A stretch of DNA of 64,000 nt from Firmicutes bacterium CAG:321_26_22 (GCA_001916775.1 MNTB01000030.1:120901-184900); one strand, 5' to 3'. Numbered from the stretch's first letter, positions 5,364-45,410 are shown. Notes: generated from the letters alone by a model not told the origin. Made by a program: numbers and translations.

Positions 5364-5386
5364 TTATCAACAGATACTGTGGATAA
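5364..5386. repeat. DnaA-box-like inverted repeat TTATCAACA-gatac-TGTGGATAA (palindrome family PAL-D)
   Basis: Read directly. The right arm is a perfect DnaA box (complement of TTATCCACA). It starts 2 nt after the gmk stop. Confidence 0.7.
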
Positions 5387-5402
5387 GTGGTAATTATATA
5401 AC

Positions 5403-5432
5403 AAAAACTCAAGAAATTAATCTTGAGTTTTA
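5403..5432. terminator. Bidirectional intrinsic terminator between convergent genes
   Basis: aaaactcaaga-aattaa-tcttgagtttt: an 11-bp stem with an A-run on one side and a T-run on the other. Confidence 0.7.
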
Positions 5433-5437
5433 CTATT

Positions 5438-5803
5438 TTATCTTCCTTTTCCTACGTTACCAAAGTTATAACCCTCTTCTTGCATTCTTTTATCAACAAA
5501 TTCTTCCCAATTTGCATAGTCTGACTTGATAGGATCTCCTGTAAGATCTGCCCTTTTCTTAGCCTCGTTATAATAATTGTAAAATTCTAAATAACTTTGT
5601 ACCATTAATTCTAAAGCATATGGATCATCTAATTCAGCCTTTAAATACTTATCATACATTTTATTGAATAATTGTTTATCTATGATATCATTATTTCTAG
5701 TTTCTACTACTAGACGATTATAATAGAATTCTCTTTCTTTTAAATCATCATGTGATAAACCTTCATCAGGAATAACGGCTTTATTTTTCTTCCTCCAGTT
5801 CAA
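5438..5803 (-). CDS. Hypothetical protein (121 aa)
   Basis: ORF only. It apparently starts at TTG with no clear RBS. No recognisable motifs. Confidence 0.4.
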   Translation of the reverse strand: MNWRKKNKAVIPDEGLSHDDLKEREFYYNRLVVETRNNDIIDKQLFNKMYDKYLKAELDDPYALELMVQSYLEFYNYYNEAKKRADLTGDPIKSDYANWEEFVDKRMQEEGYNFGNVGKGR

Positions 5804-5858
5804 TTTCTATATTAATTGTCTCATACCTAAATTGATATTTCAATATTAATTTTAGATG

Positions 5859-5886
5859 TTTACATTTTCTTTATTTTTGATATAAT
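5859..5886 (+). promoter_or_regulatory. Sigma-A type promoter with extended -10
   Basis: TTTACA (5859-5864), a 16-nt spacer, then TGATATAAT (5878-5886). This places the transcript start near 5893. Confidence 0.5.
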
Positions 5887-5958
5887 TATATTATAAGTAT
5901 GCATATAATATATATATTTTTTTATTCTTTTAAACATAAAATTGGGAGGAAATATGAT

Positions 5959-6669
5959 ATGATAAATGATGACTGTTATAAGTTTTTAAAACTAGATATT
6001 GTTAGTGATACAGATAATATGATTAGTGTTTACTCTTTATACAAATTATTAAATGAATACTTTGAAGATTTTAGAATATTAAGATATGGTAATGATAAAA
6101 TGATTAATAGTATGAATAATGAATATACTTTTGTAGATAGAATTAAAAATAACATGATAAATCCTTGGTTTAGAAAAATCTTTATTTCAGAATTTAATGA
6201 TAATTTTATTAAGATGGTTATTATAGTTAATCCAATATATAGAAGAAAAGAATTTTCTACTAATAATATTTATTATTATATAATAAAGGATAGAAATAGT
6301 GGTAATATTTACTTTGAGAATAATGTACTAAAAAATAGGGTATTTGATAAATTTTATCAAGAAATTATAAATATATTTTCTTTAGCTGAAATTTATACTG
6401 ATATTTTTATGCTTGATAAAAGAGATTTTCCTATATATCATCAGACATTTGACTTAGATAATGTTGGCGCCAGTGTTGATTATAATAATTTTGGTAATGT
6501 CTCTTCTTATATTATATATGATGGTAAAATATGTAGTAATAATGAAATTAAAGATATTAAAAATGATATCTTAAAAAGAATTCCTGTATATACAGATAAT
6601 CTTGATGTTATAAGTAGTTATATTGTTAATGAACAAAGAAAAGCTAAAATTAGAAAAAAAGAATATTAA
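5959..6669 (+). CDS. Hypothetical protein (236 aa from the ATG at 5959)
   Basis: GGGAGGA RBS at 5944-5950, 8 nt before the ATG at 5959. The ORF-track start at 5899 lies too close to the predicted promoter. No recognisable family. Confidence 0.5.
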   Translation: MINDDCYKFLKLDIVSDTDNMISVYSLYKLLNEYFEDFRILRYGNDKMINSMNNEYTFVDRIKNNMINPWFRKIFISEFNDNFIKMVIIVNPIYRRKEFSTNNIYYYIIKDRNSGNIYFENNVLKNRVFDKFYQEIINIFSLAEIYTDIFMLDKRDFPIYHQTFDLDNVGASVDYNNFGNVSSYIIYDGKICSNNEIKDIKNDILKRIPVYTDNLDVISSYIVNEQRKAKIRKKEY

Positions 6670-6720
6670 AGTAGAGACAATGTGGCTCTACTTTCTTTCT
6701 GAAGACTTATGGCTTCAGAA
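6669..6720. repeat. Two tandem hairpins of the AGAC...GGCT family (HP-AG); the first probably terminates the upstream gene
   Basis: aagtagAGACaatgtGGCTctactt and ttctgaAGACttatGGCTtcagaa, read directly. Confidence 0.7.
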
Positions 6721-6821
6721 ACAACGAACAACGAAGTGTGAGATGCCTAAATAAATTAGATATTTTACTTGAAAATTATATGATTTTATTATATACTTAT
6801 ATTAACCAAAGGAGGTATTTT

Positions 6822-7580
6822 ATGAAAAGTAGTAGAATTATGAAAATATTTGAACAATATGTCAGAAAATATGATATGAATAATATAGATATTAAAGCTA
6901 GATATTTTCATTCACTGAAAGTTATGGAACTTGCAAGAGAACTAGCTACTGGTTTGGGTATTTTTTCTGAGGAAGAAGTAGCCGTCTGTGAACTTATTGG
7001 TCTATTTCATGAGATAGGTAACTTTTCTAAAACTCCTAATTATCAAATGGATGATGATATTAATGATAGTTATAATAGAACTATTGATGTTTTATTTAAT
7101 AAAAAGTTAATTAGAGAAATTAGTAAAGAAACTAAGTATGATACAGTTATTAAAATGGCTATCTTTGCTTATGATAAAAATGGATTCCCTGCTGATATTG
7201 ATGAGAAAGGTAGACATATGTGTGCTATTATAAAAGATGCTCATAATTTAGATTCTTTTAGATTATTTGTTAATTATCCATATGTAGATACAGTAATCAA
7301 AAGTTATCCTAGTAGTCTCGTGTATGATGACTTTAAAAGTTTTAAGACTATTAGTTCTAAAGTAAGTGATAATGCTAGTGATGAAGTATTAGTTACTTTA
7401 TCGAAGATGTATTCATTTAATTATAAATATTCTTATTATTTATTAAAACAAAATGATTATGTTAATAAGATATTTAATTTTTTAAATTTTGATAATAGTG
7501 AATTAGAGGGGTTCTTTAAACAACTTATGGTTGTTCTTAATAATTATATCGATAAAAGGATAGGTGTTGTAAATGCTTGA
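6822..7580 (+). CDS. HD-superfamily-like domain protein
   Basis: AAGGAGG RBS before the ATG at 6822. [14 protein letters not shown] ... LIGLFHEIG pattern typical of HD-domain phosphohydrolases. The stop overlaps the valS start. Confidence 0.55.
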
Positions 7581-10107
7581 TAAAAAATATGACCACTTGA
7601 TGGTTGAAAAAGATAAATATGATAATTGGAAGAAAAAGGGGTATTTTAAATCTGGTGATTTAAGTAAGGAACCATACTGTATAGTTATTCCTCCTCCTAA
7701 TGTAACGGGTAAATTACATTTAGGTCATGCTTGGGATACTTCAATTCAAGATATTATTATTAGATATAAGAGAATGCAAGGGTTTGATACTTTATGGCTT
7801 CCAGGTATGGATCATGCTGGTATTGCTACGCAGGCTAAGGTAGATAAAAAACTTAAGAGTGAAGGTATTAATCCTAGAAGTATGTCTCGTGAAGAGTGGC
7901 TTAAGGTTGCTTGGTCTTGGAAAGAAGAATATGCTGAAAATATTCATAGTCAGTGGGCTAAACTTGGTTTATCTCTTGATTATGATAAGGAAAGATTTAC
8001 TTTAGATGATGGTTTATCTCATGCTGTTAGAAAGGTATTTGTTGATTTATATAACAAAGGTCTTATCTATAGAGGTGAGAGAATTATTAATTGGGATCCT
8101 GCAGCGATGACTGCTCTAAGTAATGAAGAGGTTATTTATAAAGATGTTGAAGGAGCCTTCTACCACATTAAATATATGATTGAAGGTACTGATGAGTATC
8201 TAGAGGTTGCTACGACTAGACCAGAGACTTTATTTGGTGATACTGCAGTTGCAGTTAATCCAGATGATGATAGGTATAAGAAATATATTGGTAAGAATGT
8301 TATGCTTCCAATAGTTAATAAACTTATTCCTATTATTGGTGATGAACACGCTGATATGGAGTTTGGTACTGGTGTTGTTAAGATTACTCCTGCTCATGAC
8401 CCTAATGACTTTGAAGTAGGTAATAGACATAATCTAGAGAGAATTGTCGTTATGAATCCTAATGGTACAATGAACGAGAATGCTGGTAAATATAATGGTA
8501 TGGATAGATTTGAATGTAGAGATGCTGTTATTAAGGACTTAGATAGTGAAGGACTTCTTATTAAGATTGAACCTATTAATCATAACGTTGGTTTTTCTGA
8601 GAGAAGCGATGTTATGGTTGAACCTTATCTTTCTAAACAATGGTTTGTTAAGATGAGACCACTAGCAGATAGAGTTCTTGAAAACCAAAAGGATAAAGAT
8701 AAGAAAGTTAACTTTGTTCCTCCTAGATATGAAAAGACTATGAATCACTGGATGGAGATCACATATGATTGGTGTATCTCTAGACAATTATGGTGGGGTC
8801 ACAGAATACCTGCTTGGTATAAAGGTGAGGAAGTTTATGTTGGTATGGAAGAACCTAAAGGTGATGGTTGGGTACAGGATAATGATGTACTTGATACTTG
8901 GTTTTCTTCAGCACTATGGCCTTTTAGTACTTTAGGATGGCCTGATAATACTGACTTACTTAAGAGATATTATCCTAATAATGTACTAGTTACTGGTTAT
9001 GATATTATTCCTTTCTGGGTTAATAGAATGACTTTTCAAGGACTTGAGTTCTTAAATGAAAGACCTTTTAAAGATTGTTTAATTCATGGTCTTATTAGAG
9101 ATAAAAAAGGTAGAAAGATGAGTAAGAGTCTAGGTAATGGTATTGACCCTATGGATGTTATTGATATGTATGGTGCTGACTCTTTAAGATTCTTCTTAAC
9201 TACAAATACCGCTCCTGGTATGGATTTAAGATATGATGAAGAAAAAGTTAAATCAACTTGGAACTTTATTAATAAGATTTGGAATGCTTCAAGATTTGTT
9301 TTAATGAAACTAGAAGACTTTAAAGAGGAAGATTATACTCTTGATAATTTAAAAGAAGAAGATAAGTGGATTTTAAATAGATTAAATACTACGATTAAAG
9401 ATGTTACTAAAAATATGGATAAATATGATTTTCATATTGTAGGTAATACACTATATGATTTTGTATGGGGAGACTTCTGTGACAAGTATATTGAGTTATC
9501 TAAGTTCTATAATGATAATACTACGAAGAGTGTACTTATTAGAGTTCTTACAGATATTCTGAAGATGCTTCATCCTTTTATGCCTTATGTTACTGAAGAA
9601 ATATATGGTATGATGCCTATTAAAGAAGCAGAATCTATTATGATTAGTAATTATCCTGTATATAATAAGAAAGAGGTATTTACCACTAATATTGATAATG
9701 TACTTGAATTTATTACAATGTTTAGAAATAAAAAGGCTGAACTTGGTAATATTGGAGAGTATAAGGTATATATTGATATTGATGACGAGACTTCTAAAGA
9801 CATTATTATTAATATGCTAAAATTAAGTGATAAGATTTCTTTAGAAGATGGTAATGGTATAAAAATAGAATATGCTGGTATGAAGGCTTCTATTATATAT
9901 GATAATAGTAAGAGTTTAGAAGAAGAAAAAGAAAAACTTCTTAAAGAAAAAGAAAGTCTAGAGGCTTCAATTGCAAGAAGAGAGAAACTTCTTAGTAATA
10001 GTAATTATGTTGAGAAGGCTCCTAAAGCAATTGTTGATAAAGATAGAGAAGCTCTTCTTAAAGAAAAAGAAATGTTAGATATTATTTTAAATAAAATTAA
10101 TGGTTAG
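7573..10107 (+). CDS. valS: Valyl-tRNA synthetase
   Basis: [15 protein letters not shown] (HIGH region), KMSKSLGN, class Ia editing domain, and the C-terminal coiled coil typical of ValRS. 844 aa. Confidence 0.95.
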
Positions 10108-10130
10108 TTTATAAAAAGGAGGTTATATTT

Positions 10131-13669: not shown

Positions 13670-13778
13670 TCCTATTAACTTAGGGTTATTTTTTTGTAAA
13701 GTATTCTGTAAAATATGAATCATTTCCTTTATTGTTATTTCTAAATATGATATATTTATACTAGAAAAGGTGATAACT

Positions 13779-16280
13779 ATGGATGATAACATGAGAAATG
13801 CTTGGCTAGATATGATATCTAAAGTTTATACTAATTTACATAATAGTGATAGAGTTCTTAGAGCTTCAAATGTATCTGATAAAAAAAGAGAAAGATTATT
13901 AAAATATTTTGAAAGACTTGAAGAACTACATAATAGAGTATCTGAGACAAGAAGTGTTAATGGTGAAAAATTACTTAAAAGTTTTTATTATGACTTATAT
14001 GTTATTAAACCAGAAAACATACCTGATGCTTACTTTCAAAACCAAGTTAGACTTGCTAGAGAAAGAGGTTATGGTAACATAGAATTAACTGAAGAAGATA
14101 AGAGGAGAATGACTGAAGAAGTTATTGATGATCAAAGGAAAAGTTTAGATAAATGGATTGAATACTTTTTATATGATGAAGAAAGTAAATCTTATGGAAT
14201 GTGGGAAAAATACTGGGTATTTCAAGGACTACAAAGTTTAGGTAAATATGATAAGGAAACTGGTAAATTTAGTAAAAGAGATAAAAGTACTGTATATCCT
14301 TTTCCTCTAGTAGAAAGAGAATATATTTTTACTACTTTAAAACTAATGGAAGATTTTCTTAAAGATAAAAAAAGCAAAGAAGATATTAAACAAGCATTAA
14401 GTACTGGTAATTTTAAACTTTTATATGAGTATGTTATTAAGCAAAGCTTTTTAAAAGGAGAACATCAAAGTAATAGTACTGATGGTAAATGGATTAAATA
14501 TGAACAAGAAAGTGATTATAATATTTTAAGAGATTCACTTCAAGGCTATTATACTGGTTGGTGTACTGCTGCTGGGGAGAACTTTGCCAAAGACCAGTTG
14601 GCAGGTGGTGACTTTTATGTTTACTACTCATTAGATAAGAATGGTGAAGCAAAAGTACCTAGAATTGCTATTAGAATGGATGGTAAAGATAAAATTGGAG
14701 AGATTAGAGGTATTGCAGATAATCAAAATATGGAACCTGAAATGATGCCCATTCTTGAAGAAAAACTAAAAGATTTTCCTGATAAAGGTAAATATCTAAA
14801 AAAAGAACATGATATGAAATTACTTACTTTAATTGATAAAAAGGTAAATGATAATATTGATCTTACTCTTGAAGAACTTAAATTTTTATATGAAATAGAT
14901 GGTCAAATCATAGGTTTCGGGTATGGAAAAGATCCTAGAATAGAAGAAATTAAAAGAAAAAGAAATGAAAGAAGAGATTATAGTCTTATATTTAATGTTA
15001 AAGAAGAAGAGGTTGCTTTATCACAAAAAGAATGGCTAAATAATCCAAAAAAATTTAAAGCTCTTCCGGGTAATATAGATTTAGGCTCTCTTACTAGTGC
15101 TGATGGACTTGTTCTTCCTCAACATGTTGGTGGCAATATAGATTTAAATTCTCTTGCTAGCGCTGATGGGCTTGTTCTTCCTCAACATGTTGGTGGCAAT
15201 ATATTTTTAAGACATCTTACTAATGCTGAGGGACTTGTTCTTCCTAAACAACTTGGTGGTGGTATAGATTTAAGATCTCTTACTAGTGCTGAGGGACTTG
15301 TTCTTCCTCAACATGTTGGTGGCAATATATTTTTAAGACATCTTACTAGTGCTGAAGGACTTGTTCTTCCTCAACATGTTGGTGGCAATATATATTTAAG
15401 TTCTCTTGCTAGTGCTGATGGACTTATTCTTCCTCAACATGTTGGTAATAGTATAGATTTAAGTTCTCTTACTAGTGCTGATGGACTTGTTCTTCCTAAA
15501 CAACTTGGTGGTGGTATAGATTTAAGTTCTCTTGCTAGTGCTGATGGACTTGTTCTTCCCGAAAGTATTGGTGGTAGGATAGATTTAAGTTCTCTTACTA
15601 GTGCTGATGGACTTATTCTTCCTCAACATGTTGGTAATAGTATAGATTTAAGTTCTCTTGCTAGTGCTAAAGGACTTGTTCTTCCCGAAAGTATTGGTGG
15701 TAGGATAGATTTAAAATCTCTTACTAGTGCTGATGGACTTGTTCTTCCTCAACATGTTGGTAGTAGTATAAATTTAAGTTCTCTTACTAGTGCTGATGGA
15801 CTTGTTCTTCCTCAACATGTTGGTGGCTATATAGATTTAAGATCTCTTACTAGTGCTGATGGACTTATTCTTCCTAAACAACTTGATGGTAGTATAGATT
15901 TAAGATCTCTTACTAGTGCTGATGGACTAGATTTAAGATCTCTTACTAGTGCTGATGGACTTGTTCTTCCTCAACATGTTGGTGGCTATATAGATTTAAG
16001 CTCTCTTACTAGTGCTGATGGGCTTGTTCTTCCAGAAAGTATTGGTGGTGATATATATTTAAACTCTCTTACTAGTGCTGATGGGCTTGTTCTTCCAGAA
16101 AGTATTGTTGGTGATATATATTTAAACTCTCTTACTAGTACTGATGGACTTGTTCTTCCTCATGATTTTAATTTATTTATGCTATATTGTCCTTATTATA
16201 TTGAAAAAGAAATTATGAATAATCCTGATAAATATTATATGGCTCCTACTGAAGATGATAAAAAAGAAATAAAAAGATAA
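13779..16280 (+). CDS. Large repeat protein: about 430-aa N-terminal domain of unknown function plus about 17 tandem 21-aa LRR-like repeats; no signal peptide seen
   Basis: RBS AAAGGTGA before the ATG at 13779. The C-terminal 364 aa consist of G(G/N)xIDLxSLTSADGLVLP(QHV/KQL/ESI)G units. The N-terminal part contains GWCTAAGENFAKDQLAGGDFYVYYS...IGEIRGIADNQN. Confidence 0.8.
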   Translation: MDDNMRNAWLDMISKVYTNLHNSDRVLRASNVSDKKRERLLKYFERLEELHNRVSETRSVNGEKLLKSFYYDLYVIKPENIPDAYFQNQVRLARERGYGNIELTEEDKRRMTEEVIDDQRKSLDKWIEYFLYDEESKSYGMWEKYWVFQGLQSLGKYDKETGKFSKRDKSTVYPFPLVEREYIFTTLKLMEDFLKDKKSKEDIKQALSTGNFKLLYEYVIKQSFLKGEHQSNSTDGKWIKYEQESDYNILRDSLQGYYTGWCTAAGENFAKDQLAGGDFYVYYSLDKNGEAKVPRIAIRMDGKDKIGEIRGIADNQNMEPEMMPILEEKLKDFPDKGKYLKKEHDMKLLTLIDKKVNDNIDLTLEELKFLYEIDGQIIGFGYGKDPRIEEIKRKRNERRDYSLIFNVKEEEVALSQKEWLNNPKKFKALPGNIDLGSLTSADGLVLPQHVGGNIDLNSLASADGLVLPQHVGGNIFLRHLTNAEGLVLPKQLGGGIDLRSLTSAEGLVLPQHVGGNIFLRHLTSAEGLVLPQHVGGNIYLSSLASADGLILPQHVGNSIDLSSLTSADGLVLPKQLGGGIDLSSLASADGLVLPESIGGRIDLSSLTSADGLILPQHVGNSIDLSSLASAKGLVLPESIGGRIDLKSLTSADGLVLPQHVGSSINLSSLTSADGLVLPQHVGGYIDLRSLTSADGLILPKQLDGSIDLRSLTSADGLDLRSLTSADGLVLPQHVGGYIDLSSLTSADGLVLPESIGGDIYLNSLTSADGLVLPESIVGDIYLNSLTSTDGLVLPHDFNLFMLYCPYYIEKEIMNNPDKYYMAPTEDDKKEIKR
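15069..16160 (+). repeat. Tandem 63-bp coding repeat array (16 full units plus one partial)
   Basis: Direct reading: the period is exactly 63 nt and many units are more than 85% identical at the DNA level. One unit carries an internal 33-bp duplication (15897-15929 / 15930-15962). Confidence 0.95.
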
Positions 16281-16286
16281 ACTTAA

Positions 16287-16367
16287 AATTGAAGACTACA
16301 GGCTTCAATTTTTTCATTAAAGACCTTAGGCTTTAATGATAGTAAAGAGATTACAAGCTCTTTACTA
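16287..16367. repeat. HP-AG hairpin pair plus tail element; the first hairpin is the terminator of the repeat-protein gene
   Basis: aattgaAGACtacaGGCTtcaatt+TTTT. Then cattaaAGACcttaGGCTttaatgatagt..., which is 29/30 identical to 52722-52751. Then the hairpin agtaaagag-attacaag-ctctttact. Confidence 0.75.
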
Positions 16368-21699: not shown

Positions 21700-22227
21700 A
21701 TGAAATACAATATTCGTGGTGATAAAATGCTTATTACCGATGCAATAAAAGACTATACGGAAACTAAATTAGGAAGACTTGAAAAATATTTTAAGGACGA
21801 TGATATTACCGCTAATGTACTGGCTAAAGTAAGAGGTAATTCACAAATAGTGGAAGTTACTATTCCTACTAGTAAATTTATTCTTAGAAGTGAAGAAGAA
21901 AGTGATGATTTATATGCTGCTATTGACTTGGTAAGTGATAAATTAGAAAGACAAATCAGAAAGAATAAAACTAGATTAAACAGAAATGTTAAAGATAATA
22001 TTAAAGAATTTAACTTTGATTTTGATATAAAAGAGGAGGAAGAACCTAAAGAAAAAATTGTTAAAAGAAAAGATATTGAAATGAAACCTATGGATGAAGA
22101 AGAGGCCATTTTAGAAATGGAACTTCTTGGTCACTCATTCTTTGTATATAAAGATATGGATACTAATAAAACTTGTGTTCTTTATAAAAGAAAAGATGGA
22201 GACTATGGTTTAATTGAAACTAAGTAA
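21700..22227 (+). CDS. hpf: Ribosome hibernation promoting factor (long form)
   Basis: N-terminal S30AE domain (NIRGDKMLITDAIKDYTETKLGRLEKYF) and C-terminal dimerisation domain (KPMDEEEAILEMELLGHSFFVY). Confidence 0.9.
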   Translation: MKYNIRGDKMLITDAIKDYTETKLGRLEKYFKDDDITANVLAKVRGNSQIVEVTIPTSKFILRSEEESDDLYAAIDLVSDKLERQIRKNKTRLNRNVKDNIKEFNFDFDIKEEEEPKEKIVKRKDIEMKPMDEEEAILEMELLGHSFFVYKDMDTNKTCVLYKRKDGDYGLIETK

Positions 22228-22232
22228 AATAA

Positions 22233-22257
22233 AGTATCAACAATTGTTGTTGATACT
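22233..22257 (+). terminator. hpf terminator formed by a PAL-D palindrome
   Basis: agtatcaaca-attgt-tgttgatact followed by ctttttattt. Confidence 0.75.
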
Positions 22258-22276
22258 CTTTTTATTTATAATTGGT

Positions 22277-22299
22277 TTATCCACAGATTATGTTGATAG
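22277..22299. repeat. PAL-D palindrome with a perfect DnaA box
   Basis: TTATCCACA-gatta-TGTTGATAG, read directly. Confidence 0.7.
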
Positions 22300-22324: not shown

Positions 22325-23209
22325 TTAGTTAGTTATTAAATTATTTTCTTCATTAACCTGGTTTTGTAATAATTCTAATTCTTTAATATTTTTATTGTCT
22401 CTTAATACTTTCATTTGCCTTATTGCAGAATTATTAAGTCTTATTAATCTTTCACCTTGTGGAATATTTTCTTCAATTAATTCGGCATTTGTATTTTGTA
22501 GATTATTTAATATTACTAAATGGAGTAAATCAGTATAATCTCTTATATTTCCATTTTTTGCTAGTTCAGGATTTGCTTCTCTCCACTCTTTAGCAGTCAT
22601 ACCAAATAATGCAACATTTAAAACATCTGCTTCTTCAGCATAAATATGCTTTTTTTGTTCTTCTGTAAGAGTTGGAACAATATAATTTTTTACTGCATCA
22701 GTATGAACCATATAATTTAATTTAGATAAAATTCTATTCGCACTCCAATCTAATTTGTACTGATAGGCTTCATTAGTTTTTAGTCTCTCAAATTCAGTTA
22801 TTAAATATAATTTAAATTCCGGACTTAACCAACTTGCAAATTCAAAAGCAATATCAGGATGGGCAAATGTGCCAATACTATATCTTCCACCTTTTGAAAT
22901 TATTCCTATTGCATTAGTCCTTTTTATCCATTGTGTTGGAGACATTGCAAACGAATTTCTACCATACTCCGTTTTAATTTGGTCGAATTCGACCAAATTA
23001 AAATCTTGATTATGAATTTCTTCCCATAAACCAATATAATCAATGGTACTTATCCTTCTTAACCAATTTTTCACCGTAAAAGATGGATCACTAGAATTTT
23101 GATACTTTGCCAAATCAGTTAATGAAATATAATTAACATTTCCTACCCTTAATATTCCTATTTTATTTTCTTTAACAGTGATTTCTGTTCTAACTATGTC
23201 TCTTTTCAA
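22325..23209 (-). CDS. KilA-N domain protein
   Basis: ILRVGNVNYISLTDLAKY ... TFAHPDIAFEFASWLSPEFKLYL matches KilA-N. TTG start 6 nt after AGGAGGG. Confidence 0.8.
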   Translation of the reverse strand: MKRDIVRTEITVKENKIGILRVGNVNYISLTDLAKYQNSSDPSFTVKNWLRRISTIDYIGLWEEIHNQDFNLVEFDQIKTEYGRNSFAMSPTQWIKRTNAIGIISKGGRYSIGTFAHPDIAFEFASWLSPEFKLYLITEFERLKTNEAYQYKLDWSANRILSKLNYMVHTDAVKNYIVPTLTEEQKKHIYAEEADVLNVALFGMTAKEWREANPELAKNGNIRDYTDLLHLVILNNLQNTNAELIEENIPQGERLIRLNNSAIRQMKVLRDNKNIKELELLQNQVNEENNLITN

Positions 23210-23286
23210 GTTTTTCCCTCCTAATGGTTATTATATCATACTTTATTTATTTAATATATTGTTTAAATTAAAATTTGTAATTATTC

Positions 23287-23352
23287 TATCAACAGTAGTT
23301 GTTGATATATTTTATCTTATATTTTAATTTTATCAACATATACTGTTAATAA
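23287..23352. repeat. Two PAL-D palindromes
   Basis: tatcaaca-gtagt-tgttgata (23287-23307) and ttatcaaca-tatac-tgttaataa (23330-23352). Confidence 0.7.
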
Positions 23353-23360
23353 CTTTAAAG

Positions 23361-23414
23361 TTTTAAAGACTTATGGCTTTAAAACTCTTTTTTGAAGACC
23401 TTAGGCTTCAAAAA
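23361..23414. repeat. Two HP-AG hairpins
   Basis: ttttaaAGACttatGGCTttaaaa and tttttgaAGACcttaGGCTtcaaaaa. Confidence 0.7.
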
Positions 23415-26024: not shown

Positions 26025-26107
26025 TCGCTCAAACCCTTATAAATAAAGGGATTGCGGGTTTTTCTATGATTCCACATTTTAGGTAATTTTTGGAGTGACA
26101 ACTGTCC

Positions 26108-26169
26108 TAGATACGTTTTAGATACGTTATAAAAATCTTGCAAAGCCTTATAAAATAAGGCTAAAACGC
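26108..26169 (+). repeat. TAGATACGTTT doublet followed by a hairpin related to the secA 3' flank
   Basis: tagatacgttt-tagatacgtt (26108-26128), then cttgcaaAGCCTTAtaaaaTAAGGCTaaaacgc (26137-26169). An inverted half-site aaaacgtatcta lies at 26200-26211. Confidence 0.75.
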
Positions 26170-26256: not shown

Positions 26257-27354
26257 ATGCTAAAACCACAAAAATTGAATAAAGGAGATAAAGTTGCAAT
26301 AGTTAGTTTATCTAGAGGATTATTGGGAATGCCTTTTTGTAAACATGAGTTAGATATAGCAATTAAAAGATTAGAAGAATTTGGATTAATACCGGTTATA
26401 ATGCCAAATGCATTGAAAGATATGGATTATCTTCAAAACCATCCAGAAGCAAGGGCAAGTGATTTAAAACAGGCTTTTATGGATGATAGTATAAAAGGAA
26501 TTATTTGTGCCATTGGTGGAGATGATACATATAAAACAATTCCATACTTAATGGAAGATGAGGAATTTATAAATGCAGTTCAAAATTATCCGAAATTATT
26601 TACAGGTTTTTCTGATACAACAAACAACCACTTAATGTTAAATAAATTAGGACTCTCAACTTTCTACGGTCCTTGCTTATTAGTTGATCTAGCAGAATTA
26701 GATAAAGAGATGTTGCCATATACAAAACAATATTTTGAAAAGTTTTTTATGAATGAATCTAATTTTGAAATAGCATCAAGTCCAATATGGTATTTTGATA
26801 GAGAAAGCTATGGCACTGAAGAAGTTGGAAAACCAAGAAAATCTCAAAATGAGCAACATGGGTTTGAAGTTTTGAATGGTAAAGGAAAAATAACAGGAAA
26901 ATTATATGGTGGATGTCTAGATAGTTTATACGATATTTATACAAGTGAAAGATATGGAAATGAAAATGAAATATACACTAAATATAATATATTACCAACT
27001 TTAGATGAATGGAAAGAAAAAATACTATTTATAGAAACTTCTGAGGAAAGAATGCATCCAGATAAATTGGAACTAATATTGAACTTTTTTAAGAATAATA
27101 AAGTATTGGAAAGCGTAAGAGGTATTATTGTTGGTAAACCTATAGATGAAAAATATTATGAAGAGTATAAGCAAGTTTACAAAAAGGTTTTTGCAGATTT
27201 AGAAACGCCTATTTTGTATAATGTTAATTTTGGACATTCTGTTCCAAGATGTATAATACCATATGATGCTGAAGCAACTATAGATTTTGATAATAAAAGG
27301 ATAACTATTAACACTCCAATATTTGAAGAAACAACAATTACTAAAAAATTGTAA
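26257..27354 (+). CDS. S66-family LD-carboxypeptidase / MccF-like serine peptidase
   Basis: GDKVAIVS..., nucleophile motif FTGFSDTTN, NFGHSVP histidine motif. Extended -10 TGATATAAT at 26228-26236 and a GGAG RBS. Confidence 0.8.
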   Translation: MLKPQKLNKGDKVAIVSLSRGLLGMPFCKHELDIAIKRLEEFGLIPVIMPNALKDMDYLQNHPEARASDLKQAFMDDSIKGIICAIGGDDTYKTIPYLMEDEEFINAVQNYPKLFTGFSDTTNNHLMLNKLGLSTFYGPCLLVDLAELDKEMLPYTKQYFEKFFMNESNFEIASSPIWYFDRESYGTEEVGKPRKSQNEQHGFEVLNGKGKITGKLYGGCLDSLYDIYTSERYGNENEIYTKYNILPTLDEWKEKILFIETSEERMHPDKLELILNFFKNNKVLESVRGIIVGKPIDEKYYEEYKQVYKKVFADLETPILYNVNFGHSVPRCIIPYDAEATIDFDNKRITINTPIFEETTITKKL

Positions 27355-27376
27355 AAAATTCAACAATGGCAAATTT

Positions 27377-27400
27377 TAGATACGTTTTTAGATACGTTTT
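27377..27400 (+). repeat. TAGATACGTTTT doublet (second copy)
   Basis: tagatacgttttTAGATACGTTTT, a direct repeat of 26108-26128. Confidence 0.8.
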
Positions 27401-27547
27401 GCTAGGTTTGCCGAGTGCTACGGAGTGCTCCCAAGTGCAACCAAGTGCCGAATTAACGAGCCAAGTGCTCCCAAACGCTCCCAAAAACCCCAATACAAAA
27501 AGCCATGTGGCAGTGGTAAAAAATATAAACAATGTTGTGGTAAATAA
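27392..27547 (+). pseudogene. Start-less open frame ending in a secA-like SEC-C tail (remnant 1)
   Basis: ...YKKPCGSGKKYKQCCGK*. The 15 nt ccatgtggcagtggt are identical to the secA 3' end. There is no ATG or RBS, and the frame opens right after a TAG inside the TAGATAC doublet. Confidence 0.7.
27411..27490 (+). repeat. Eight phased 10-nt GC-rich units (consensus CCAAGTGCTC)
   Basis: ccgagtgcta cggagtgctc ccaagtgcaa ccaagtgccg aattaacgag ccaagtgctc ccaaacgctc ccaaaaaccc. The period is exactly 10 nt, which is not a multiple of 3. Confidence 0.8.
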
Positions 27548-27593
27548 ACTTGCAAACCTGCATAAAATAAGGGAAAGCGTGAGCTTTTTCTTT

Positions 27594-27654
27594 GCTAAAA
27601 AATTGCGAGTTTATATGTTCTGAACCACTTTAGATACCTTTTAGATACCTTTTT
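27594..27654 (+). repeat. Direct repeat, left copy: gctaaaaaattgcga + TAGATACCTTTT doublet
   Basis: gctaaaaaattgcgaG...tagataccttttagataccttttt. Its partner is at 29718-29773. Confidence 0.8.
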
Positions 27655-29713: not shown

Positions 29714-29717
29714 TTTT

Positions 29718-29773
29718 GCTAAAAAATTGCGAAAAACGATTAAAAAAGTATTTTAGATACCTTTTTAGATACC
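29718..29773 (+). repeat. Direct repeat, right copy: gctaaaaaattgcga + TAGATACC doublet
   Basis: gctaaaaaattgcgaA...tagatacctttttagatacc. Confidence 0.8.
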
Positions 29774-29923
29774 TCGGGAGTAAATTCACGGGTGCTGTTG
29801 GAAGCTACCAAGTGCATTCAAGAGCAAAAAAGGACCACAAAATGCTCTCAAGAACTCCCAAAAACCTCAAATTACAAGCCTTGTGGGTCTGGTAAGAAAT
29901 ATAAGAACTGCTGTGGAAAGTAA
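29744..29923 (+). pseudogene. Start-less open frame ending in a SEC-C tail (remnant 2)
   Basis: ...ATKCIQEQKRTTKCSQELPKTSNYKPCGSGKKYKNCCGK*. Homologous to remnant 1 (ATKC...Y(K)KPCGSGKKYK.CCGK). No start codon. Confidence 0.65.
29787..29866 (+). repeat. Second array of eight phased 10-nt units
   Basis: cacgggtgct gttggaagct accaagtgca ttcaagagca aaaaaggacc acaaaatgct ctcaagaact cccaaaaacc. Same architecture as 27411-27490. Confidence 0.7.
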
Positions 29924-32387: not shown

Positions 32388-32419
32388 ATCTATCAACAGA
32401 TATTGTTGATAGATTTTTT
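32388..32419 (+). terminator. PAL-D palindrome acting as an intrinsic terminator
   Basis: atctatcaaca-gatat-tgttgatagat followed by TTTTT. Confidence 0.75.
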
Positions 32420-32739: not shown

Positions 32740-32770
32740 TCTATCAATAGGTATTGTTGATAGATTTTTT
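32740..32770 (+). terminator. Second, near-identical PAL-D terminator
   Basis: tctatcaata-ggtat-tgttgataga followed by TTTTTT. Nearly identical to 32388-32419. Confidence 0.75.
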
Positions 32771-37658: not shown

Positions 37659-37662
37659 TATT

Positions 37663-40267: not shown

Positions 40268-40318
40268 ACCTTATTTTTTAAAAATATGATATAATTATAT
40301 GTGAAATGAGGGATTATT

Positions 40319-41846: not shown

Positions 41847-43043
41847 ATGCATAGAGATGATTTTGCAATGCTTTCTAATAATATTGTTTACTTTGATAAT
41901 GGTGCTACTACTTTAAAACCTAAATGTGTTAGAGATGCTATTTGTAAATACTATGATGAATATACTGCTAATGCACATAGAGGAGACTATAAAACTAGTA
42001 CTATTGTTGATAATTTATATGAAAGTACAAGAGAAGAAATTAAAAATTTTATAAATGCTAAAGAAAACTCAGAAATCGTTTTTACTAGTGGTACTACTAA
42101 TGGAATGAATATGATAGTTACAGGCTTTTTTAAGAATTATCTTAAGAAAGATGATGAAGTATTAATTACACTTAGTGAACATGCTTCAAATATTCTTCCG
42201 TGGTTTATTTTACAAAAAGAAATTGGTATCAAAGTTAAATATATTCCTTTAAATGAAAATCATGAAGTTACTATTGATAATTTTAAAAAGAGTATTACTA
42301 ATAAGACTAAAGTTGTATCACTTGCTTATGTTACTAATGTTGTAGGAGATGAAAGACCTATTAAAGAAATTAGTAAGATAGCTCACGATAATAATATTTT
42401 AGTAGTAGTAGATGCTGCTCAGGGTATTCCTCATAAGAAGATTGATGTTCAAAAAGATGATATAGATTTTATGGCTTTTTCAGGGCATAAGATGTATGGA
42501 CCTACTGGAGTTGGAGTTTTATATGCTAAATTTGATTTACTTGATAAGATTACTCCTATGAACTATGGTGGTGGTATGAATGCCATATTTACTAAAGATG
42601 GTTATGTTGAACTTAGAGAAATTCCTACTAGACTAGAAGGAGGTACTCCTAATATAGAGGGAGTATTAGGTCTTAGTGCTGCTATCAAATATTTAAATAA
42701 TATAGGTATGGATAAAATTAATAAATATGAAAAAGATCTTAGAAGATACTTAATTAATGAACTTAATAAACTAGACTTTATTGAAGTATATAATAAAGAT
42801 GTTGATACTAATATTGTAGCATTTAATATTAAAGGAGTATTTGCTCAAGATGCTGCTATTTACTTAGATAAATATAATATATGTGTTAGAGCAGGTAATC
42901 ATTGTGCTAAAATTCTTGATAATGTATTTAATATTAGTAATACTGTTAGAATTAGTTTAAGTTTCTATAATAATAAGGAAGAAATTGATTTACTTATTAA
43001 TGTACTTAAGAATAGTAGTAATATATGGAAGGAAATATTATAA
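41847..43043 (+). CDS. sufS: Cysteine desulfurase SufS (class II)
   Basis: FSGHKMYGPTGVGVLY (PLP lysine) and RAGNHCA active-site Cys loop. Confidence 0.9.
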   Translation: MHRDDFAMLSNNIVYFDNGATTLKPKCVRDAICKYYDEYTANAHRGDYKTSTIVDNLYESTREEIKNFINAKENSEIVFTSGTTNGMNMIVTGFFKNYLKKDDEVLITLSEHASNILPWFILQKEIGIKVKYIPLNENHEVTIDNFKKSITNKTKVVSLAYVTNVVGDERPIKEISKIAHDNNILVVVDAAQGIPHKKIDVQKDDIDFMAFSGHKMYGPTGVGVLYAKFDLLDKITPMNYGGGMNAIFTKDGYVELREIPTRLEGGTPNIEGVLGLSAAIKYLNNIGMDKINKYEKDLRRYLINELNKLDFIEVYNKDVDTNIVAFNIKGVFAQDAAIYLDKYNICVRAGNHCAKILDNVFNISNTVRISLSFYNNKEEIDLLINVLKNSSNIWKEIL

Positions 43044-43468
43044 TGGATAGAGATTTAAAAAGAAGTATTATTTTAGATAATTATCAGAATCCTAATATGA
43101 AACATACTAGTAATGAAGATTATGTTAAGATTAATACTAGAAATGTTAGTTGTATTGATAATTTAGATATTTATTTAAAAATAGAAGATAATATTATTAG
43201 AGATATTTCTTTTGAAGGCGAAGCTTGTGTTATTAGTATATCTTCTACTAATATTTTAGCTAATATGCTAGTAGGTAAATCTAAGGAAGAAGGTATTTAT
43301 TTAATTGATAATTATCTTAAGATGATTAATGAAGAAGAATATGATAAAGATGTACTTAAAGAATTACTTGTTTTTGATGATACTAGTAAGCAACCATCAA
43401 GAATTAAATGTGCTACTTTATCCGCTAATGGTATAAAAGATTATTTAGAAGAAGAAAATCACTCATAG
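43043..43468 (+). CDS. sufU: Fe-S scaffold / sulfur acceptor SufU
   Basis: ILDNYQNP, GEACVISISS and SRIKCATLS motifs. The ATG overlaps the sufS stop (TAATG). The track start at 43025 lies inside sufS. Confidence 0.85.
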   Translation: MDRDLKRSIILDNYQNPNMKHTSNEDYVKINTRNVSCIDNLDIYLKIEDNIIRDISFEGEACVISISSTNILANMLVGKSKEEGIYLIDNYLKMINEEEYDKDVLKELLVFDDTSKQPSRIKCATLSANGIKDYLEEENHS

Positions 43469-43516
43469 TTAAATGGGTGATTTTTATGTATCAACAGGTG
43501 TTGTTGATACTTTTTT
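43458..43516 (+). repeat. sufU 3' end + hairpin + PAL-D terminator (copy 1 of a roughly 55-nt direct repeat)
   Basis: aatcactcatagttaaatgggtgatttttatgtatcaacaggtgttgttgatac + TTTTTT. Confidence 0.8.
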
Positions 43517-43608
43517 ACGATATATATTATATCATAAAATATGGTTATTTTCAAGACTTGTAGTTTTGAAAATAATAACTTATAATTGTTACGAGGTGAG
43601 ATTCTAGT

Positions 43609-45339
43609 ATGAAAAAAGATAATTTTAAAATAAACTTAAAAAAAGTATGGCAATATGTTAAAAAGAAGAAAGGTTTATTAATTATAAATATTTTTCTTAA
43701 TATCATATATTGTGCTGTCTGTATTATTATTCCTTTAATATCTGCAAAGATAATTTTGAATATTACAAGTGGATTATTTGATGAACTTTTAATTACCGCT
43801 ATTATGCTATTTGGAATTTATATTATTGAAGTTATAGTATCATATTTTCATGGTAAATTACTCCAGATAATTTCTAGAGAAACATTAGTTAATATTCAAT
43901 CTGATTTGGCCAAAGCAACATTAAACTTGGATATACAAATAATTGACAAAAATGGTTCAGGGATGTTACTGGAAAGAATTAATGGAGATTGTAATAAAAT
44001 AACTTCATTATTTTTTGATATATCTGGAATGCTATCTAAAATAATTACCCTTATTGGAGTATTTATTTCAATTCTTGTAATTAATAAATATATGTTTATA
44101 TATATGATTGTTAATTCCATTATTATTTTTATCATTAATAAAAAAATGATAAATAAAAGATTTGAAATAGATAAAAATAAGAGAAAATTTTCAGAAAAGA
44201 AAACGAGTCTTATTAGCGAACTAGTCAGAGGTATTAGAGATATTAAAGTGTTAAACATATCTGATTCTTTTGAAAAAATGCTAGATGAACAATTAATAAT
44301 AGATAACAATTACAATTATGCAATGGCTAGTGTTAATAGAAAATTATCTTACTTAACGGCATTTACTCAATATTTATTTTCTTTCCTGTTTATTATTTTT
44401 GGTATTATATTGTGTAAAAATAATCTACTAGAAATATCTGGCTTTTTAATAATATATAATTATAGAAATAAGGCTTTTAATTCTCTATCATTTATAACAA
44501 AAATAAATGAAAGTTTAAAAGATTTTAATTTATCTGCGAGTAGGATATTTGAGATTATTGATGGCAAAGATTTTAAGAAAGAAAAATTTGGTAAGAAAAT
44601 GATTAAAAATGCAGAAGGTCATTTTAAATTTGAAAATGTTAATTTTTCTTATAATGGTGAAGAAAAAATTATTAAAGATTTATCTTTTGAAATTAAACCT
44701 AATGAAACTGTTGCTTTTGTTGGTAAATCAGGGACAGGAAAAACTACTATATTTAGTTTACTCGATAAATTATATACGATAGATAGTGGAAACATCTATA
44801 TTGATAATATTAATATTAATGATTTAGATAGAGATAGTATTCGTAATAATATTTCTATCATTACTCAAAATCCTTATATATTTAACTTTAGTATTAGAGA
44901 AAATCTGAGACTAGTAAGACCTAATATGACTGATGAAGAAATGATTGAAGCCTGTAGGATGGCTTGTATAGATGATTATATTAATAAATTACCTCAGAAG
45001 TACGATACTATTTTGGGTGAGGGTGGTATTATTTTATCTGGAGGTCAAAAGCAAAGACTTGCTATTGCTAGAGCTCTTCTTAAAAAAACAGAAATAATTT
45101 TATTTGATGAGGCCACTAGTTCTTTGGATAATGAGACTCAACAAAAAATACAAACTGCGATTAAAAATATGCAGGGAGAGTATACAATACTTATAATTGC
45201 ACATAGATTATCTACTGTTATTAATAGTGATAGAATTATAGTTATTGACGATGGTCATGTAATTGCAGAAGGTACTCATGATGAACTTATAAATGACAAT
45301 GAATTTTATAAAAATTTATATCATAATGAATTAGAATAG
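43609..45339 (+). CDS. ABC exporter, fused permease/ATPase (MsbA/MdlB type)
   Basis: Six N-terminal TM helices, Walker A GKSGTGKTT, signature LSGGQKQR, Walker B ILFDEATS. Confidence 0.85.
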   Translation: MKKDNFKINLKKVWQYVKKKKGLLIINIFLNIIYCAVCIIIPLISAKIILNITSGLFDELLITAIMLFGIYIIEVIVSYFHGKLLQIISRETLVNIQSDLAKATLNLDIQIIDKNGSGMLLERINGDCNKITSLFFDISGMLSKIITLIGVFISILVINKYMFIYMIVNSIIIFIINKKMINKRFEIDKNKRKFSEKKTSLISELVRGIRDIKVLNISDSFEKMLDEQLIIDNNYNYAMASVNRKLSYLTAFTQYLFSFLFIIFGIILCKNNLLEISGFLIIYNYRNKAFNSLSFITKINESLKDFNLSASRIFEIIDGKDFKKEKFGKKMIKNAEGHFKFENVNFSYNGEEKIIKDLSFEIKPNETVAFVGKSGTGKTTIFSLLDKLYTIDSGNIYIDNININDLDRDSIRNNISIITQNPYIFNFSIRENLRLVRPNMTDEEMIEACRMACIDDYINKLPQKYDTILGEGGIILSGGQKQRLAIARALLKKTEIILFDEATSSLDNETQQKIQTAIKNMQGEYTILIIAHRLSTVINSDRIIVIDDGHVIAEGTHDELINDNEFYKNLYHNELE

Positions 45340-45353
45340 AATAAACTTATTTA

Positions 45354-45410
45354 TGATCATTCATAGTTAAATAGGTGATTTTTTATGCATCTACAGTTAT
45401 TGTTGATAGG
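45354..45410 (+). repeat. Copy 2 of the sufU-3'-end/terminator repeat (degenerate)
   Basis: gatcattcatagttaaataggtgattttttatgcatctacagttattgttgatag aligns to 43458-43510 at roughly 45 of 54 positions, including the non-coding cat-tca-tag. Confidence 0.75.

Follow-up and report, generated by a model that had tools for sequence, protein, structure and literature searches.

The stretch of DNA analysed here, 64,000 nucleotides long and referred to as the window, comes from an uncultured gut 'RF39'-type Bacilli/Tenericutes MAG lineage. It ends in the start of dnaA (63865-64000, plus strand), which runs off the window; in L204, from the same species, the gene order continues as dnaA-dnaN-comK. Pfam matches bear out the original calls of gmk, hpf, KilA-N, secA, sufU, an ABC exporter and polC. 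We scanned the 64-kb window for ATCAACA-N5-TGTTGAT with at most two mismatches and obtained 10 matches versus 0.46 expected, a number reached in none of 100 shuffles. Nine of them are intergenic (5366, 22236, 22279, 23288, 23332, 32392, 32743, 43490 and 45389), where the original prediction had placed a palindrome family, designated P here; palindromes and box clusters are given without strand. The tenth, at 12261, falls within a polysaccharide-deacetylase ORF and has the appearance of coding or chance sequence. Two further P-like copies, at 5303 and 63648, have a 4-nt spacer.

Palindrome copies along the window

The first copies lie at gmk. The P-like palindrome ATCAACAATACTGTTGAT (5303-5320, 4-nt spacer) is located in the gmk 3' end and is kept in strains L091 and L336; its membership in the family is uncertain. 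It is followed, 3' of gmk, by TTATCAACA-gatac-TGTGGATAA (5364-5386), the arms of which are 1- and 0-mismatch DnaA boxes, with a weak hairpin and no U-tract. In L271, four copies downstream of gmk are spaced by exactly 42 bp.

The hpf-secA gap holds four copies. PA (GTATCAACA-attgt-TGTTGATAC, 22233-22257) starts 8 nt past the hpf stop codon and is followed by a T-run, and PB (TTATCCACA-gatta-TGTTGATAG, 22277-22299), 43 bp after PA, has a perfect DnaA box as its left arm and forms a weak hairpin. Beyond the KilA-N cassette gene (22325-23209, minus strand), P1 (CTATCAACA-gtagt-TGTTGATAT, 23286-23308), the right-hand module copy, closes the cassette. PC (TTATCAACA-tatac-TGTTAATAA, 23330-23352) lies 44 bp after P1 and adjoins the secA upstream region in every P-clade species. 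The cassette is bracketed by two modules of ~96 bp with two palindromes each (22204-22298 and 23257-23351, both plus strand), which are direct repeats with 70% identity.

Downstream of secA, a copy that combines a 12-bp stem with a T-run (32388-32414) marks the right edge of a strain-variable island. Its TTGATA also reads as a -35-like hexamer for a gene of 88 aa. Another copy with a T-run (32740-32764) comes after this 88-aa membrane gene and upstream of the Fe-hydrogenase gene. The last two copies belong to 53-bp repeats around the ABC exporter gene (43609-45339, plus strand). The left repeat (43458-43509, plus strand) comprises the last sufU codons, a small terminator hairpin and a P copy (43488-43510); the right one (45356-45408, plus strand) is 87% identical and carries the degenerate copy GCATCTACA-gttat-TGTTGATAG.

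Overall, copies in arrays are spaced ~42-43 bp apart, with 4-8 boxes per 60-170 bp at hpf-secA and in L271. The flanks of different copies resemble each other, showing spread by duplication.

Palindromes at strain-variable junctions

The hpf-secA gap is hypervariable between strains. The KilA-N gene, the product of which is a full-length match to the PADLOC candidate defence protein PDC-S22, is one of at least five alternative contents of the gap; we found five different cassette sets in arrays of 1-4 cassettes, with a module at every junction. Empty PA-PB-PC arrays occur in L017 and L019, and relative to these the KilA-N insertion adds exactly one palindrome. New DNA begins directly 3' of PB (TGTTGATA) in every strain; in L004, one insertion lies inside an inter-palindrome spacer, ~17 nt after P1, and not at a palindrome. 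All four allele combinations are found within 43 bp around PA. Similarly, the ABC exporter shows presence/absence polymorphism between its 53-bp repeats: it occurs in a minority of strains, always at the sufU-polC locus and at no other, and the empty site is seen in 10 strains.

The original prediction that all copies border variable inserts holds for hpf|secA, for sufU|polC and for the right-hand border of the secA island. It does not extend to the 88-aa gene, which is conserved in all strains seen, with no strain variation seen at the 32740-32764 copy, or to the gmk copy, to which we found no variation tied. Furthermore, several variable junctions carry no motif copy, and some copies lie between conserved genes.

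Could the palindrome be the core site of site-specific (att/attC-like) recombination? A recombinase acting in trans would insert circular cassettes and duplicate the palindrome, leading to integron or CIME/IMEX-type accretion. The inverted arms with a fixed 5-bp spacer agree with this, as do the three loci at which direct repeats that end at or contain the palindrome lie on both sides of a variable or bracketed segment, the uniform insertion point after PB, the single extra palindrome of the KilA-N insertion and the arrays of 1-4 cassettes. However, no recombinase was found associated with the palindromes, and the integrase seen after secA in some strains belongs to another element, which has the secA 3' end as its repeats. 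In every insert the spacer sequence at one end differs from that at the other, and spacers also vary between strains, which is unfavourable for tyrosine recombinases; the L004 insertion falls within a spacer; cassette genes point both ways and have their own promoters (at least one an extended -10 promoter); and GTTGATA departs from the attC core GTTRRRY. The exporter gene was found at a single locus only, where deletion between repeats explains the polymorphism equally well, and the same palindrome is found in oriC of relatives. We consider this explanation unlikely. The hairpin-recognising recombinase or transposase suggested originally finds no direct support: no such gene was found, IS110 and rve elements of other strains are not inserted in palindromes, and breakpoints are not at one fixed position.

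Hairpins and terminators

Four of the nine intergenic copies (22236, 32392, 32743 and 43490) combine a strong hairpin with a U-tract (z -4.4 to -6.1) and are predicted to act, probably, as terminators. PA (-12.4 kcal/mol, z -5.2) is probably the hpf terminator; the hairpin at 32388-32414 reaches -13.2 kcal/mol. The other five (5366, 22279, 23288, 23332 and 45389) form poor hairpins without a U-tract and still keep their arms. Thus, the earlier proposal of a spreading terminator marked by T-runs suits 4/9 copies, which have a stable hairpin and a T-run, but not the remaining 5/9.

The PA stem after hpf is invariant in ~15 species, with no compensatory change, while its loop and flanks vary freely. 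Among 124 distinct copies, arm positions are ~75-99% conserved, the A/C position varies independently between the two arms, and covariation is limited to the base just outside TATC (0.47 observed versus 0.26 expected). The arms are under sequence constraint beyond pairing alone.

These observations bear on the possibility that the palindrome is nothing more than a terminator module or a REP/MITE-type selfish stem-loop, multiplied by copying, its resemblance to the DnaA box being incidental. The four strong hairpins right after stop codons, the covarying closing base pair and the flank similarity indicative of duplication would all be expected. Against it are the five weak copies, the unchanging stem across ~15 species, and the arrangement at sufU, where a separate hairpin and T-run precede the palindrome and empty-site strains have the palindrome without a T-run. 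Other terminators in the window have stems unrelated to the palindrome, copy number is low and local among the matches listed, and oriC contains the unit as a conserved element. We consider this possibility unlikely.

Match to the DnaA boxes of the organism's own origin

The arms have the form nTATC(A/C)ACA. The original claim that every arm lies within one mismatch of TTATCCACA is true for 4/18 arms only (0 mismatches in 2, 1 in 2, 2 in 12 and 3 in 2); the two perfect boxes that it named, at 22277 and 5378, are present. The arms fit the A-variant TTATCAACA instead, mostly with 0-1 mismatch and a variable position 1. As 9-mers they match TTATNCACA or TT(T/A)TCAACA, the DnaA-box motif proposed for mollicutes (PMC3322544).

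The same box is used in the clade's own oriC (TTATCAACA/TTATCCACA, including an inverted pair with N5 geometry). Upstream of dnaA, a cluster of sequence matches to the DnaA box (63630-63775) contains TTATCCACA at 63637, ATATCCACA at 63646, TGTGGAAAA at 63659 and 63708, TGTTGATAA at 63751 and TGTGGATAA at 63762, and includes the inverted pair ATCCACAgggcTGTGGAA at 63648; TTATCAACA/TGTTGATAA boxes occur both here and in the dnaA-dnaN spacer. In L204 the 75-bp spacer reads TTGTTGATAGTGGATAA...TTATCAACAagtatTGTGGATAA, which is the P unit itself (TTATCAACA-N5-TGTGGATAA). In a sister species (L278, L228 and L252) it contains AGTGGATAA, a perfect TATCAACA-N5-TGTTGATA and tandem ATATCAACAATATCAACA, the tandem boxes being ATATCAACA next to (TAA)n, and reads as a box-pair-plus-trio layout. 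A P copy is also present in the spacer in L316 and L331, and just after dnaN in L289. With the window ending in dnaA and the organism's own oriC using these boxes and the N5 inverted pair, the sequence favours the original reading of the palindromes as putative DnaA boxes. At box position 1 the palindromes mostly have G or C and the oriC boxes T or A, a difference that fits hairpin selection better than box optimisation.

A further reading would take the paired DnaA-box hairpins as recognition sites of a cassette-exchange system, integron-like in outcome, in a Gram-positive-type gut bacterium with a reduced genome. If so, an initiator binding site, or its hairpin, would serve as a landing pad for cassettes, and a few arrays near the origin would be the sites at which accessory genes, those for defence included, are shuffled, with the replication-control role kept. 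We hold such a system to be decidedly unlikely.

Clade-restricted and local distribution

The palindrome family is confined to one genus-level clade. Relatives whose hpf is less than ~85% identical lack the motif; in one of them, hpf is followed by an ordinary terminator with a GC hairpin. Most intergenic metagenome matches, among the matches listed, belong to the window region (~65 kb next to dnaA) or to oriC. Exact matches in low-GC metagenome contigs fall at P sites of the window (at least 12) and at dnaA-dnaN (at least 6); thus, at least 18 placed low-GC exact matches are in the window or oriC and several boxes lie outside oriC near the origin, an estimate of clustering in which conserved sites are over-sampled across species and which rests on exact matches among those listed, 5-13 intergenic low-GC matches being without placement. 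Throughout the 60 kb left of dnaA, GC skew is that of a leading strand pointing toward dnaA, so 'origin-proximal' presumes that dnaA marks the active origin. Rather than following most genes genome-wide, the outcome that the original prediction had set against itself, the family is local and clade-specific among the matches listed.

Three candidate classes were rejected. Dispersed REP/BIME or MITE repeats, typically many copies round the chromosome together with a RAYT or transposase, do not agree with the concentration, among the matches listed, in one 64-kb region and oriC. DNA uptake sequences (DUS/USS), words strongly enriched throughout a genome, including single copies and coding DNA, do not agree with the local family or with ATCAACA occurring 11 times in the window, mostly within palindromes; TGTTGAT singles in the window track codon usage. 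Finally, the parS consensus TGTTNCACGTGAAACA has 0 matches in the window, and in L228 the canonical parS sites lie after gyrA, in an array of their own.

The ComK AT-box has the form A4-N5-T4, with two boxes on one helix face. The N5 geometry and ~4-turn phasing of ComK boxes, reportedly described by Hamoen and colleagues in 1998, are comparable to those of the palindromes. That the palindrome binds another protein, such as a ComK-type factor, a ParB-like protein or a receptor for DNA uptake, as with the paired uptake sequences that make terminators in Neisseria or Haemophilus, is very improbable. In its favour, comK adjoins dnaN, the palindrome lies between dnaN and comK in relatives, and uptake sequences provide known cases of terminators with a common stem (PMC1852404). 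Against it, the arms have AACA/TGTT within a longer specific 8-mer where A4/T4 would be expected, competence genes are not among the targets, parS sites are located elsewhere, and half-sites occurring singly on the ATCAACA strand show no excess outside palindromes, in a family that is local, unlike uptake sequences.

Discussion

We give a probability of about one half to the reading that the palindromes are origin-proximal DnaA-box clusters, some doubling as terminators, the repetition of which promotes cassette gain and loss. In sequence, each palindrome is an inverted pair of the clade's own 'mollicute-type' DnaA box, TTATC(A/C)ACA, 5 bp apart, in a unit also present in oriC. Within one genus-level RF39-type clade, copies of this unit have come to occupy intergenic sites across the tens of kilobases beside dnaA, as single copies or in arrays with a period of ~42-43 bp, about four helical turns. 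On duplex DNA they would bind DnaA and might serve as reservoir or titration sites, possibly also as regulators of the next gene or as roadblocks to it, in the manner of the DnaA-box clusters (DBCs) of B. subtilis and datA of E. coli. Copies placed right after a stop codon, with a perfect stem closed by G-C and then a T-run, would have been put to use as intrinsic terminators. Since the modules are repeated palindromes, they may be preferred crossover or breakage points, and cassettes gained or lost there would end up bracketed by duplicated module copies. DnaA binding by itself leaves the duplication of modules by insertions unexplained.

Comparison with known systems

Several known systems share features with the palindrome family. 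As in integron attC arrays, cassettes are parted by imperfect palindromic sites and their composition differs between strains. However, an integron (intI, attC with R''/L''-L'/R' and a GTTRRRY core, co-oriented promoterless cassettes) was not recognised in ~20 arrays: no intI was called in any of them, two short separate palindromes stand where a single attC would be, the core sequence departs from the motif, and the genes, which face either way, bring their own promoters. In Neisseria, the dRS3/NIME repeats of minimal mobile elements lie on either side of inserts that vary between strains and are exchanged by recombination. Paired DNA uptake sequences are short palindromes after genes that act as terminators (PMC1852404). 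Both resemble our family in being short palindromes of shared sequence located after genes and flanking strain-variable inserts, but they number hundreds to thousands of copies genome-wide plus singles, whereas the palindrome family consists of about a dozen local copies whose sequence matches the DnaA box.

In the FST inverted repeats of T5-like phages, TTATCAACA and TTATCCACA occur as DnaA and DnaA* boxes (bioRxiv 10.1101/866236). Those are long inverted repeats within a phage terminal repeat of unknown function, and we found no phage with several P copies. The A site of the ABC primosome is likewise an inverted repeat of a DnaA box, in which the box forms a duplex in a hairpin stem when DNA is single-stranded and DnaA binds and loads the helicase (PMC6127211). 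Selection for both box sequence and pairing, as in the A site, would fit the conservation and covariation of the palindrome arms. Unlike our family, the A site is known from E. coli, in the ssDNA of plasmids and phages, and not as a chromosomal repeat family.

In B. subtilis, oriC-proximal DBCs restrain initiation in a position-dependent manner (PMC3245932). As putative DnaA-box clusters, the palindromes differ from DBCs and datA in that their boxes are strictly paired in inverted orientation across 5 bp, their arrays have a period of 42-43 bp and carry strain-variable cassettes, and some copies probably serve as terminators too. All three are DnaA-box clusters outside oriC, intergenic and near the origin.

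Copy number of the palindrome in the window

Scanning the window for ATCAACA-N5-TGTTGAT with up to two mismatches returned 10 matches, whereas 0.46 were expected from dinucleotide shuffles. The feature is real and non-random. Nine of the ten are the intergenic copies listed in the original prediction; the tenth, at 12261, lies inside a polysaccharide-deacetylase ORF and most likely reflects coding constraint or chance. With relaxed criteria, two copies with a 4-nt spacer were added, at 5303 (3' end of gmk) and 63648. All earlier gene calls (gmk, hpf, KilA-N, secA, sufU, the ABC exporter and polC) are correct. The palindrome does not follow most genes: only about 7 of some 55 gene ends in the window carry it, and the other terminators in the window have unrelated stems.

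The window has a GC content of 26%, and genetic code 11 gives long ORFs; its host is one of the RF39-type gut bacteria, which have reduced genomes. The index blocks of a public assembly collection that list the window's exact hpf protein number more than 10,000, and some contigs of the assemblies that contain it reach 1.2-1.4 Mb. For leftward extension, the first gene of the window was found on short contigs only.

The palindrome arms match the origin box

The ORF from 63865 reads MNTDNLWNEFLDKIKERITPLSYDTWFKDTK and is the start of dnaA, inside which the window ends; in a contig of the same species (L204) the order continues dnaA-dnaN-comK. Upstream of dnaA, positions 63630-63775 hold six DnaA-type boxes (TTATCCACA, ATATCCACA, two copies of TGTGGAAAA, TGTTGATAA and TGTGGATAA), and this cluster contains the inverted pair ATCCACAgggcTGTGGAA. 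The 75-bp dnaA-dnaN spacer of L204 reads TTGTTGATAGTGGATAAgtttaaagTTATCAACAagtatTGTGGATAA, precisely the unit of the palindrome family, with two inverted boxes and 5 nt between them. In a sister species (L278, L228 and L252; ~82% nucleotide identity), the same spacer contains, in order, AGTGGATAA, a perfect TATCAACAggtttTGTTGATA and ATATCAACAATATCAACA, the last abutting (TAA)n. It is the box-pair-plus-DnaA-trio arrangement that Richardson et al. reportedly described in 2016 for Firmicute origins. A palindrome also lies within the dnaA-dnaN spacer of two further contigs (L316 and L331) and just 3' of dnaN in another (L289).

The arms of the palindromes match the A-variant box used at the clade's own origin, so that the original idea of DnaA boxes stands in substance. 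Its mismatch count does not: each arm was said to lie 0-1 mismatch from TTATCCACA, and only 4 of the 18 arms are within one mismatch. For mollicutes, a phytoplasma genome review quotes TT(T/A)TCAACA as the DnaA box that has been proposed (PMC3322544).

Several other features of this region were observed. A ComK-family gene (L204, 4940-5431) lies directly 3' of dnaN, a hint that this uncultured lineage may be naturally competent. The entire 60 kb on the left of dnaA shows a strongly positive GC skew (+0.15 to +0.35), with nearly all genes on the + strand, and the skew is still positive right of dnaA (window, L204 and L278). A bidirectional origin at dnaA predicts a change of sign there, yet the dnaA-dnaN spacer still resembles a genuine origin core. 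Possible readings of the one-sided skew are that the active origin lies elsewhere or that the two replication arms are extremely unequal. The palindrome finding also exposes an unexplained origin architecture, a dnaA/oriC region flanked by leading-strand skew on both sides.

Three palindromes of another kind, ATTTCCCGGGAAAT or ATTTCCTGGGAAAT (0.11 expected), stand after polC (50214-50227), before polA (52779-52792) and after polA (55482-55495); they are identical to the B. subtilis Noc-binding-site consensus and occur in strains without the AraC-TraG insert too. A parS array is found ~9 kb right of dnaA in a relative. On the reverse complement of L228, a non-coding stretch ~1.3 kb after gyrA carries seven canonical parS sites (TGTTTCACGTGAAACA or TGTTCCACGTGAAACA) together with a single Noc-site-like palindrome; several of the parS sites have a DnaA-type box (TTTTCCACA or ATATCCACA) 1-3 nt beyond.

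Constraint on sequence and predicted terminators

The comparison covered 124 distinct palindrome copies, drawn from related species and other strains as well as from the window. Arm positions are ~75-99% conserved, and the 5-nt spacer is free (75 different spacers). At the A/C position the arms vary independently (0.63 paired, 0.58 expected), whereas the base just outside TATC, mostly G or C, covaries clearly (0.47 paired, 0.26 expected). We conclude that the constraint on the 8-nt arm is one of sequence, which is what a site for a protein would show.

Some copies have, in addition, the form of predicted terminators. The original prediction that several copies work as intrinsic terminators probably holds for four of the nine: in folding, 22236, 32392 and 32743 (~-11.5 to -13 kcal/mol) and 43490 (-22.3 kcal/mol, folded only jointly with the adjacent sufU hairpin) have z of -4.4 to -6.1, a U-tract and a position no more than ~20 nt from a stop codon. 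The other five have weak hairpins with z above -2.1 and no U-tract; 5366, 22279, 23288 and 23332 reach ~-4.4 to -7.2 kcal/mol at various positions, and the -9.5 kcal/mol of 45389 belongs to a larger fragment without the palindrome stem formed. The stem of the copy after hpf, GTATCAACA, is unchanged in ~15 species, always with the T-run on its 3' side, while its loop and upstream flank vary; a GC hairpin terminator unrelated to the palindrome takes its place in one relative, whose hpf identity is 85%. At sufU a separate small hairpin and T-run precede the palindrome, which itself has no T-run in strains without the ABC gene. No Rfam family reached the gathering threshold across the window, and the matches in the array region were all at chance level.

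Adjacent palindromes are 39-44 bp apart from start to start, mostly 42-43, and four copies in L271, from another species, are spaced exactly 42 bp. As 42 bp is four helical turns, all sites lie on one side of the helix. The L271 array is downstream of gmk and falls in the putative C-terminal tail of an ORF (7480-8253) for a 257-aa membrane protein, where each palindrome reads L-S-T-x-P-V-D.

Other identities were rejected. For a pair of operators, with the first palindrome over the -35 element and the second at the transcription start, the spacing to a -10 is right at 32392 alone; secA and the cassette genes have their promoters further downstream than the palindromes. By inspection, arms and spacer are unlike the geometry of a Xer/dif-like site, and parS was rejected as well.

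Distribution

Near hpf, the motif is present only in species with roughly 85% hpf identity or more and some 55 relatives that are less close lack it. Exact TATCAACA-N5-TGTTGATA, looked for in metagenome contigs, gave at least 120 stretches. At least 70 sites are in contigs of 33% GC or more; these are mostly chance, because 46 of the 70 are within ORFs, among the matches listed. The 53 low-GC-contig sites among the matches listed, in which conserved sites are over-counted across species, comprise 12 at palindrome sites of the window (six at 22236, one at 23288, three at 32392 and two at 32743), five in the dnaA-dnaN spacer, one just after dnaN, one at the L271 array of four copies, 16-17 inside long ORFs and 5 to 13 that are intergenic without an assigned locus. 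In contigs at least 95% identical to the window, all 7 of 7 sites among the matches listed fall in the window, which is ~4% of a 1.46-Mb genome. An evenly spread chromosomal family would not give this distribution. Viral contigs gave 98 matches, with a single site in every locus listed and none multi-copy, consistent with chance background and no phage link.

Variable junctions and gene cassettes

The original prediction placed all copies at junctions with variable inserts. This is true of hpf|secA, the right edge of the secA island and sufU|polC; it does not hold for the copy after the 88-aa gene (32743) or for the gmk copy, where no linked variation was seen.

Ten same-species contigs have five different contents in the hpf-secA gap: KilA-N; a 500-aa gene; 154-aa and 171-aa genes; 174-aa and 171-aa genes; or 174-aa and 173-aa genes with a KilA-N remnant and a 383-aa gene. 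A module of palindrome, ~24 nt AT-rich spacer and palindrome stands at every junction; in the window it forms a 96-bp direct repeat flanking KilA-N on both sides (copies PA, 22236; PB, 22279; P1, 23288; PC, 23332). "Empty" arrays in related species are PA-PB-PC (L017, L019) or PA-PC (L013, L024). The PA region shows two loop alleles and two spacer alleles in all four combinations inside 43 bp, which indicates frequent exchange. Breakpoints vary, the spacers at an insert's two ends differ and no recombinase gene was found, which makes a dedicated site-specific recombination system acting at the palindromes the less likely account. Inserted DNA always starts directly after TGTTGATA of PB, apart from one L004 insertion that sits in the spacer, ~17 nt past a palindrome, between spacer-like repeats. 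Abutted transposon ends with a 5-bp target duplication were rejected, as the 5-nt spacers at an insert's two ends are never identical.

Along its full length the KilA-N protein (22325-23209, - strand) matches PDC-S22, a candidate defence protein in PADLOC (E = 4e-117); it also matches PHROG transcriptional regulators. Truncated KilA-N copies persist beside secA in other species.

Copy 32392 is the conserved right edge of the variable island downstream of secA, and the 88-aa gene between 32392 and 32743 is in all strains compared. Two further copies of the 3' end of secA with its downstream region lie in the island, at 65-67% identity (25980-26128 / 27503-27651; 27338-27547 / 29716-29923). Other strains have an arm-type tyrosine integrase with ParA/ParB and pilin genes, a vanG-like operon or an ABC/FtsX pair here. 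The island resembles the product of successive integrase-type insertions at the 3' end of secA, a conventional mechanism that is separate from the palindromes.

At sufU|polC, ten strains have an empty site with a single palindrome. The ABC exporter is present in 25 index blocks compared with 201 for sufU, always at this junction. An imperfect 53-bp repeat, which takes in the last codons of sufU, lies on either side of the exporter; Campbell-type insertion and deletion between repeats are equally compatible with its polymorphism. No variation is linked to the gmk copy. At that junction the 121-aa "orphan" is a 478-aa gene with an internal deletion, and its variation is unrelated to the palindrome.

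Strain comparison also identified four variable junctions without the motif: HIT|prsA, DUF308|large repeat protein (where one strain has an IS110 insertion), an rve insertion sequence and polC|AraC-TraG|polA. IS110/bridge-type targeting of the palindrome was rejected, since the IS110 copy (L009) sits in ordinary intergenic DNA. Nor is polC|AraC-TraG|polA a second palindrome-bracketed insert: both Noc-site-like palindromes are already in empty-site strains and the inserted DNA is located between the two, so there was no duplication.

A second repeat family consists of tandem twin hairpins, whose AT-rich stems differ among copies yet remain paired; thirteen are on the + strand and one on the - strand. 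Those on the + strand at 6668-6721, 16285-16339, 23359-23414, 45412-45473, 52686-52746 and 61683-61739 lie upstream of predicted promoters of conserved genes, namely an HD-domain gene, rmuC, secA, polC, polA and a HerA-like gene. Their conserved top is aGAC-N3..12-GGCt, a third GACTAyAGG hairpin often comes after them, and they have no Rfam match. Separately, an 836-aa ORF (13770-16280, +) has ~63-bp internal tandem repeats between 15056 and 16169 and varies from 571 to 843 aa among strains.

Discussion

The palindromes are best read as putative DnaA-box clusters outside oriC, a known kind of element. The simplest account would be that DnaA sites were exported from oriC to nearby intergenic regions and that some copies were co-opted as terminators. 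Box-bound DnaA can reportedly block RNA polymerase (Schaefer and Messer 1988). As repeats, the palindromic modules would be preferred points of homologous or illegitimate exchange and breakage, and inserts would be bracketed by module copies for this reason.

Human gut metagenomes very commonly contain RF39-type bacteria, which have never been cultured, and the palindrome family offers a concrete, testable handle on their replication control. It raises the questions of whether origin-proximal clusters buffer DnaA in these genomes as in B. subtilis, whether a DnaA site can come to serve as a terminator, and whether the repeats are hot spots for strain-specific gene turnover, including that of a candidate defence gene.

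The "A site", a hairpin whose stem contains a DnaA box, loads helicase on single-stranded DNA (PMC6127211); a helicase-loading hairpin of this kind would explain joint selection on sequence and pairing. The exported palindromes would act like the oriC-proximal DnaA-box clusters of B. subtilis, which exert a position-dependent restraint of initiation (PMC3245932). What is new relative to known DnaA-box clusters is the palindromic, phased, terminator-forming layout and the link to cassette hot spots.
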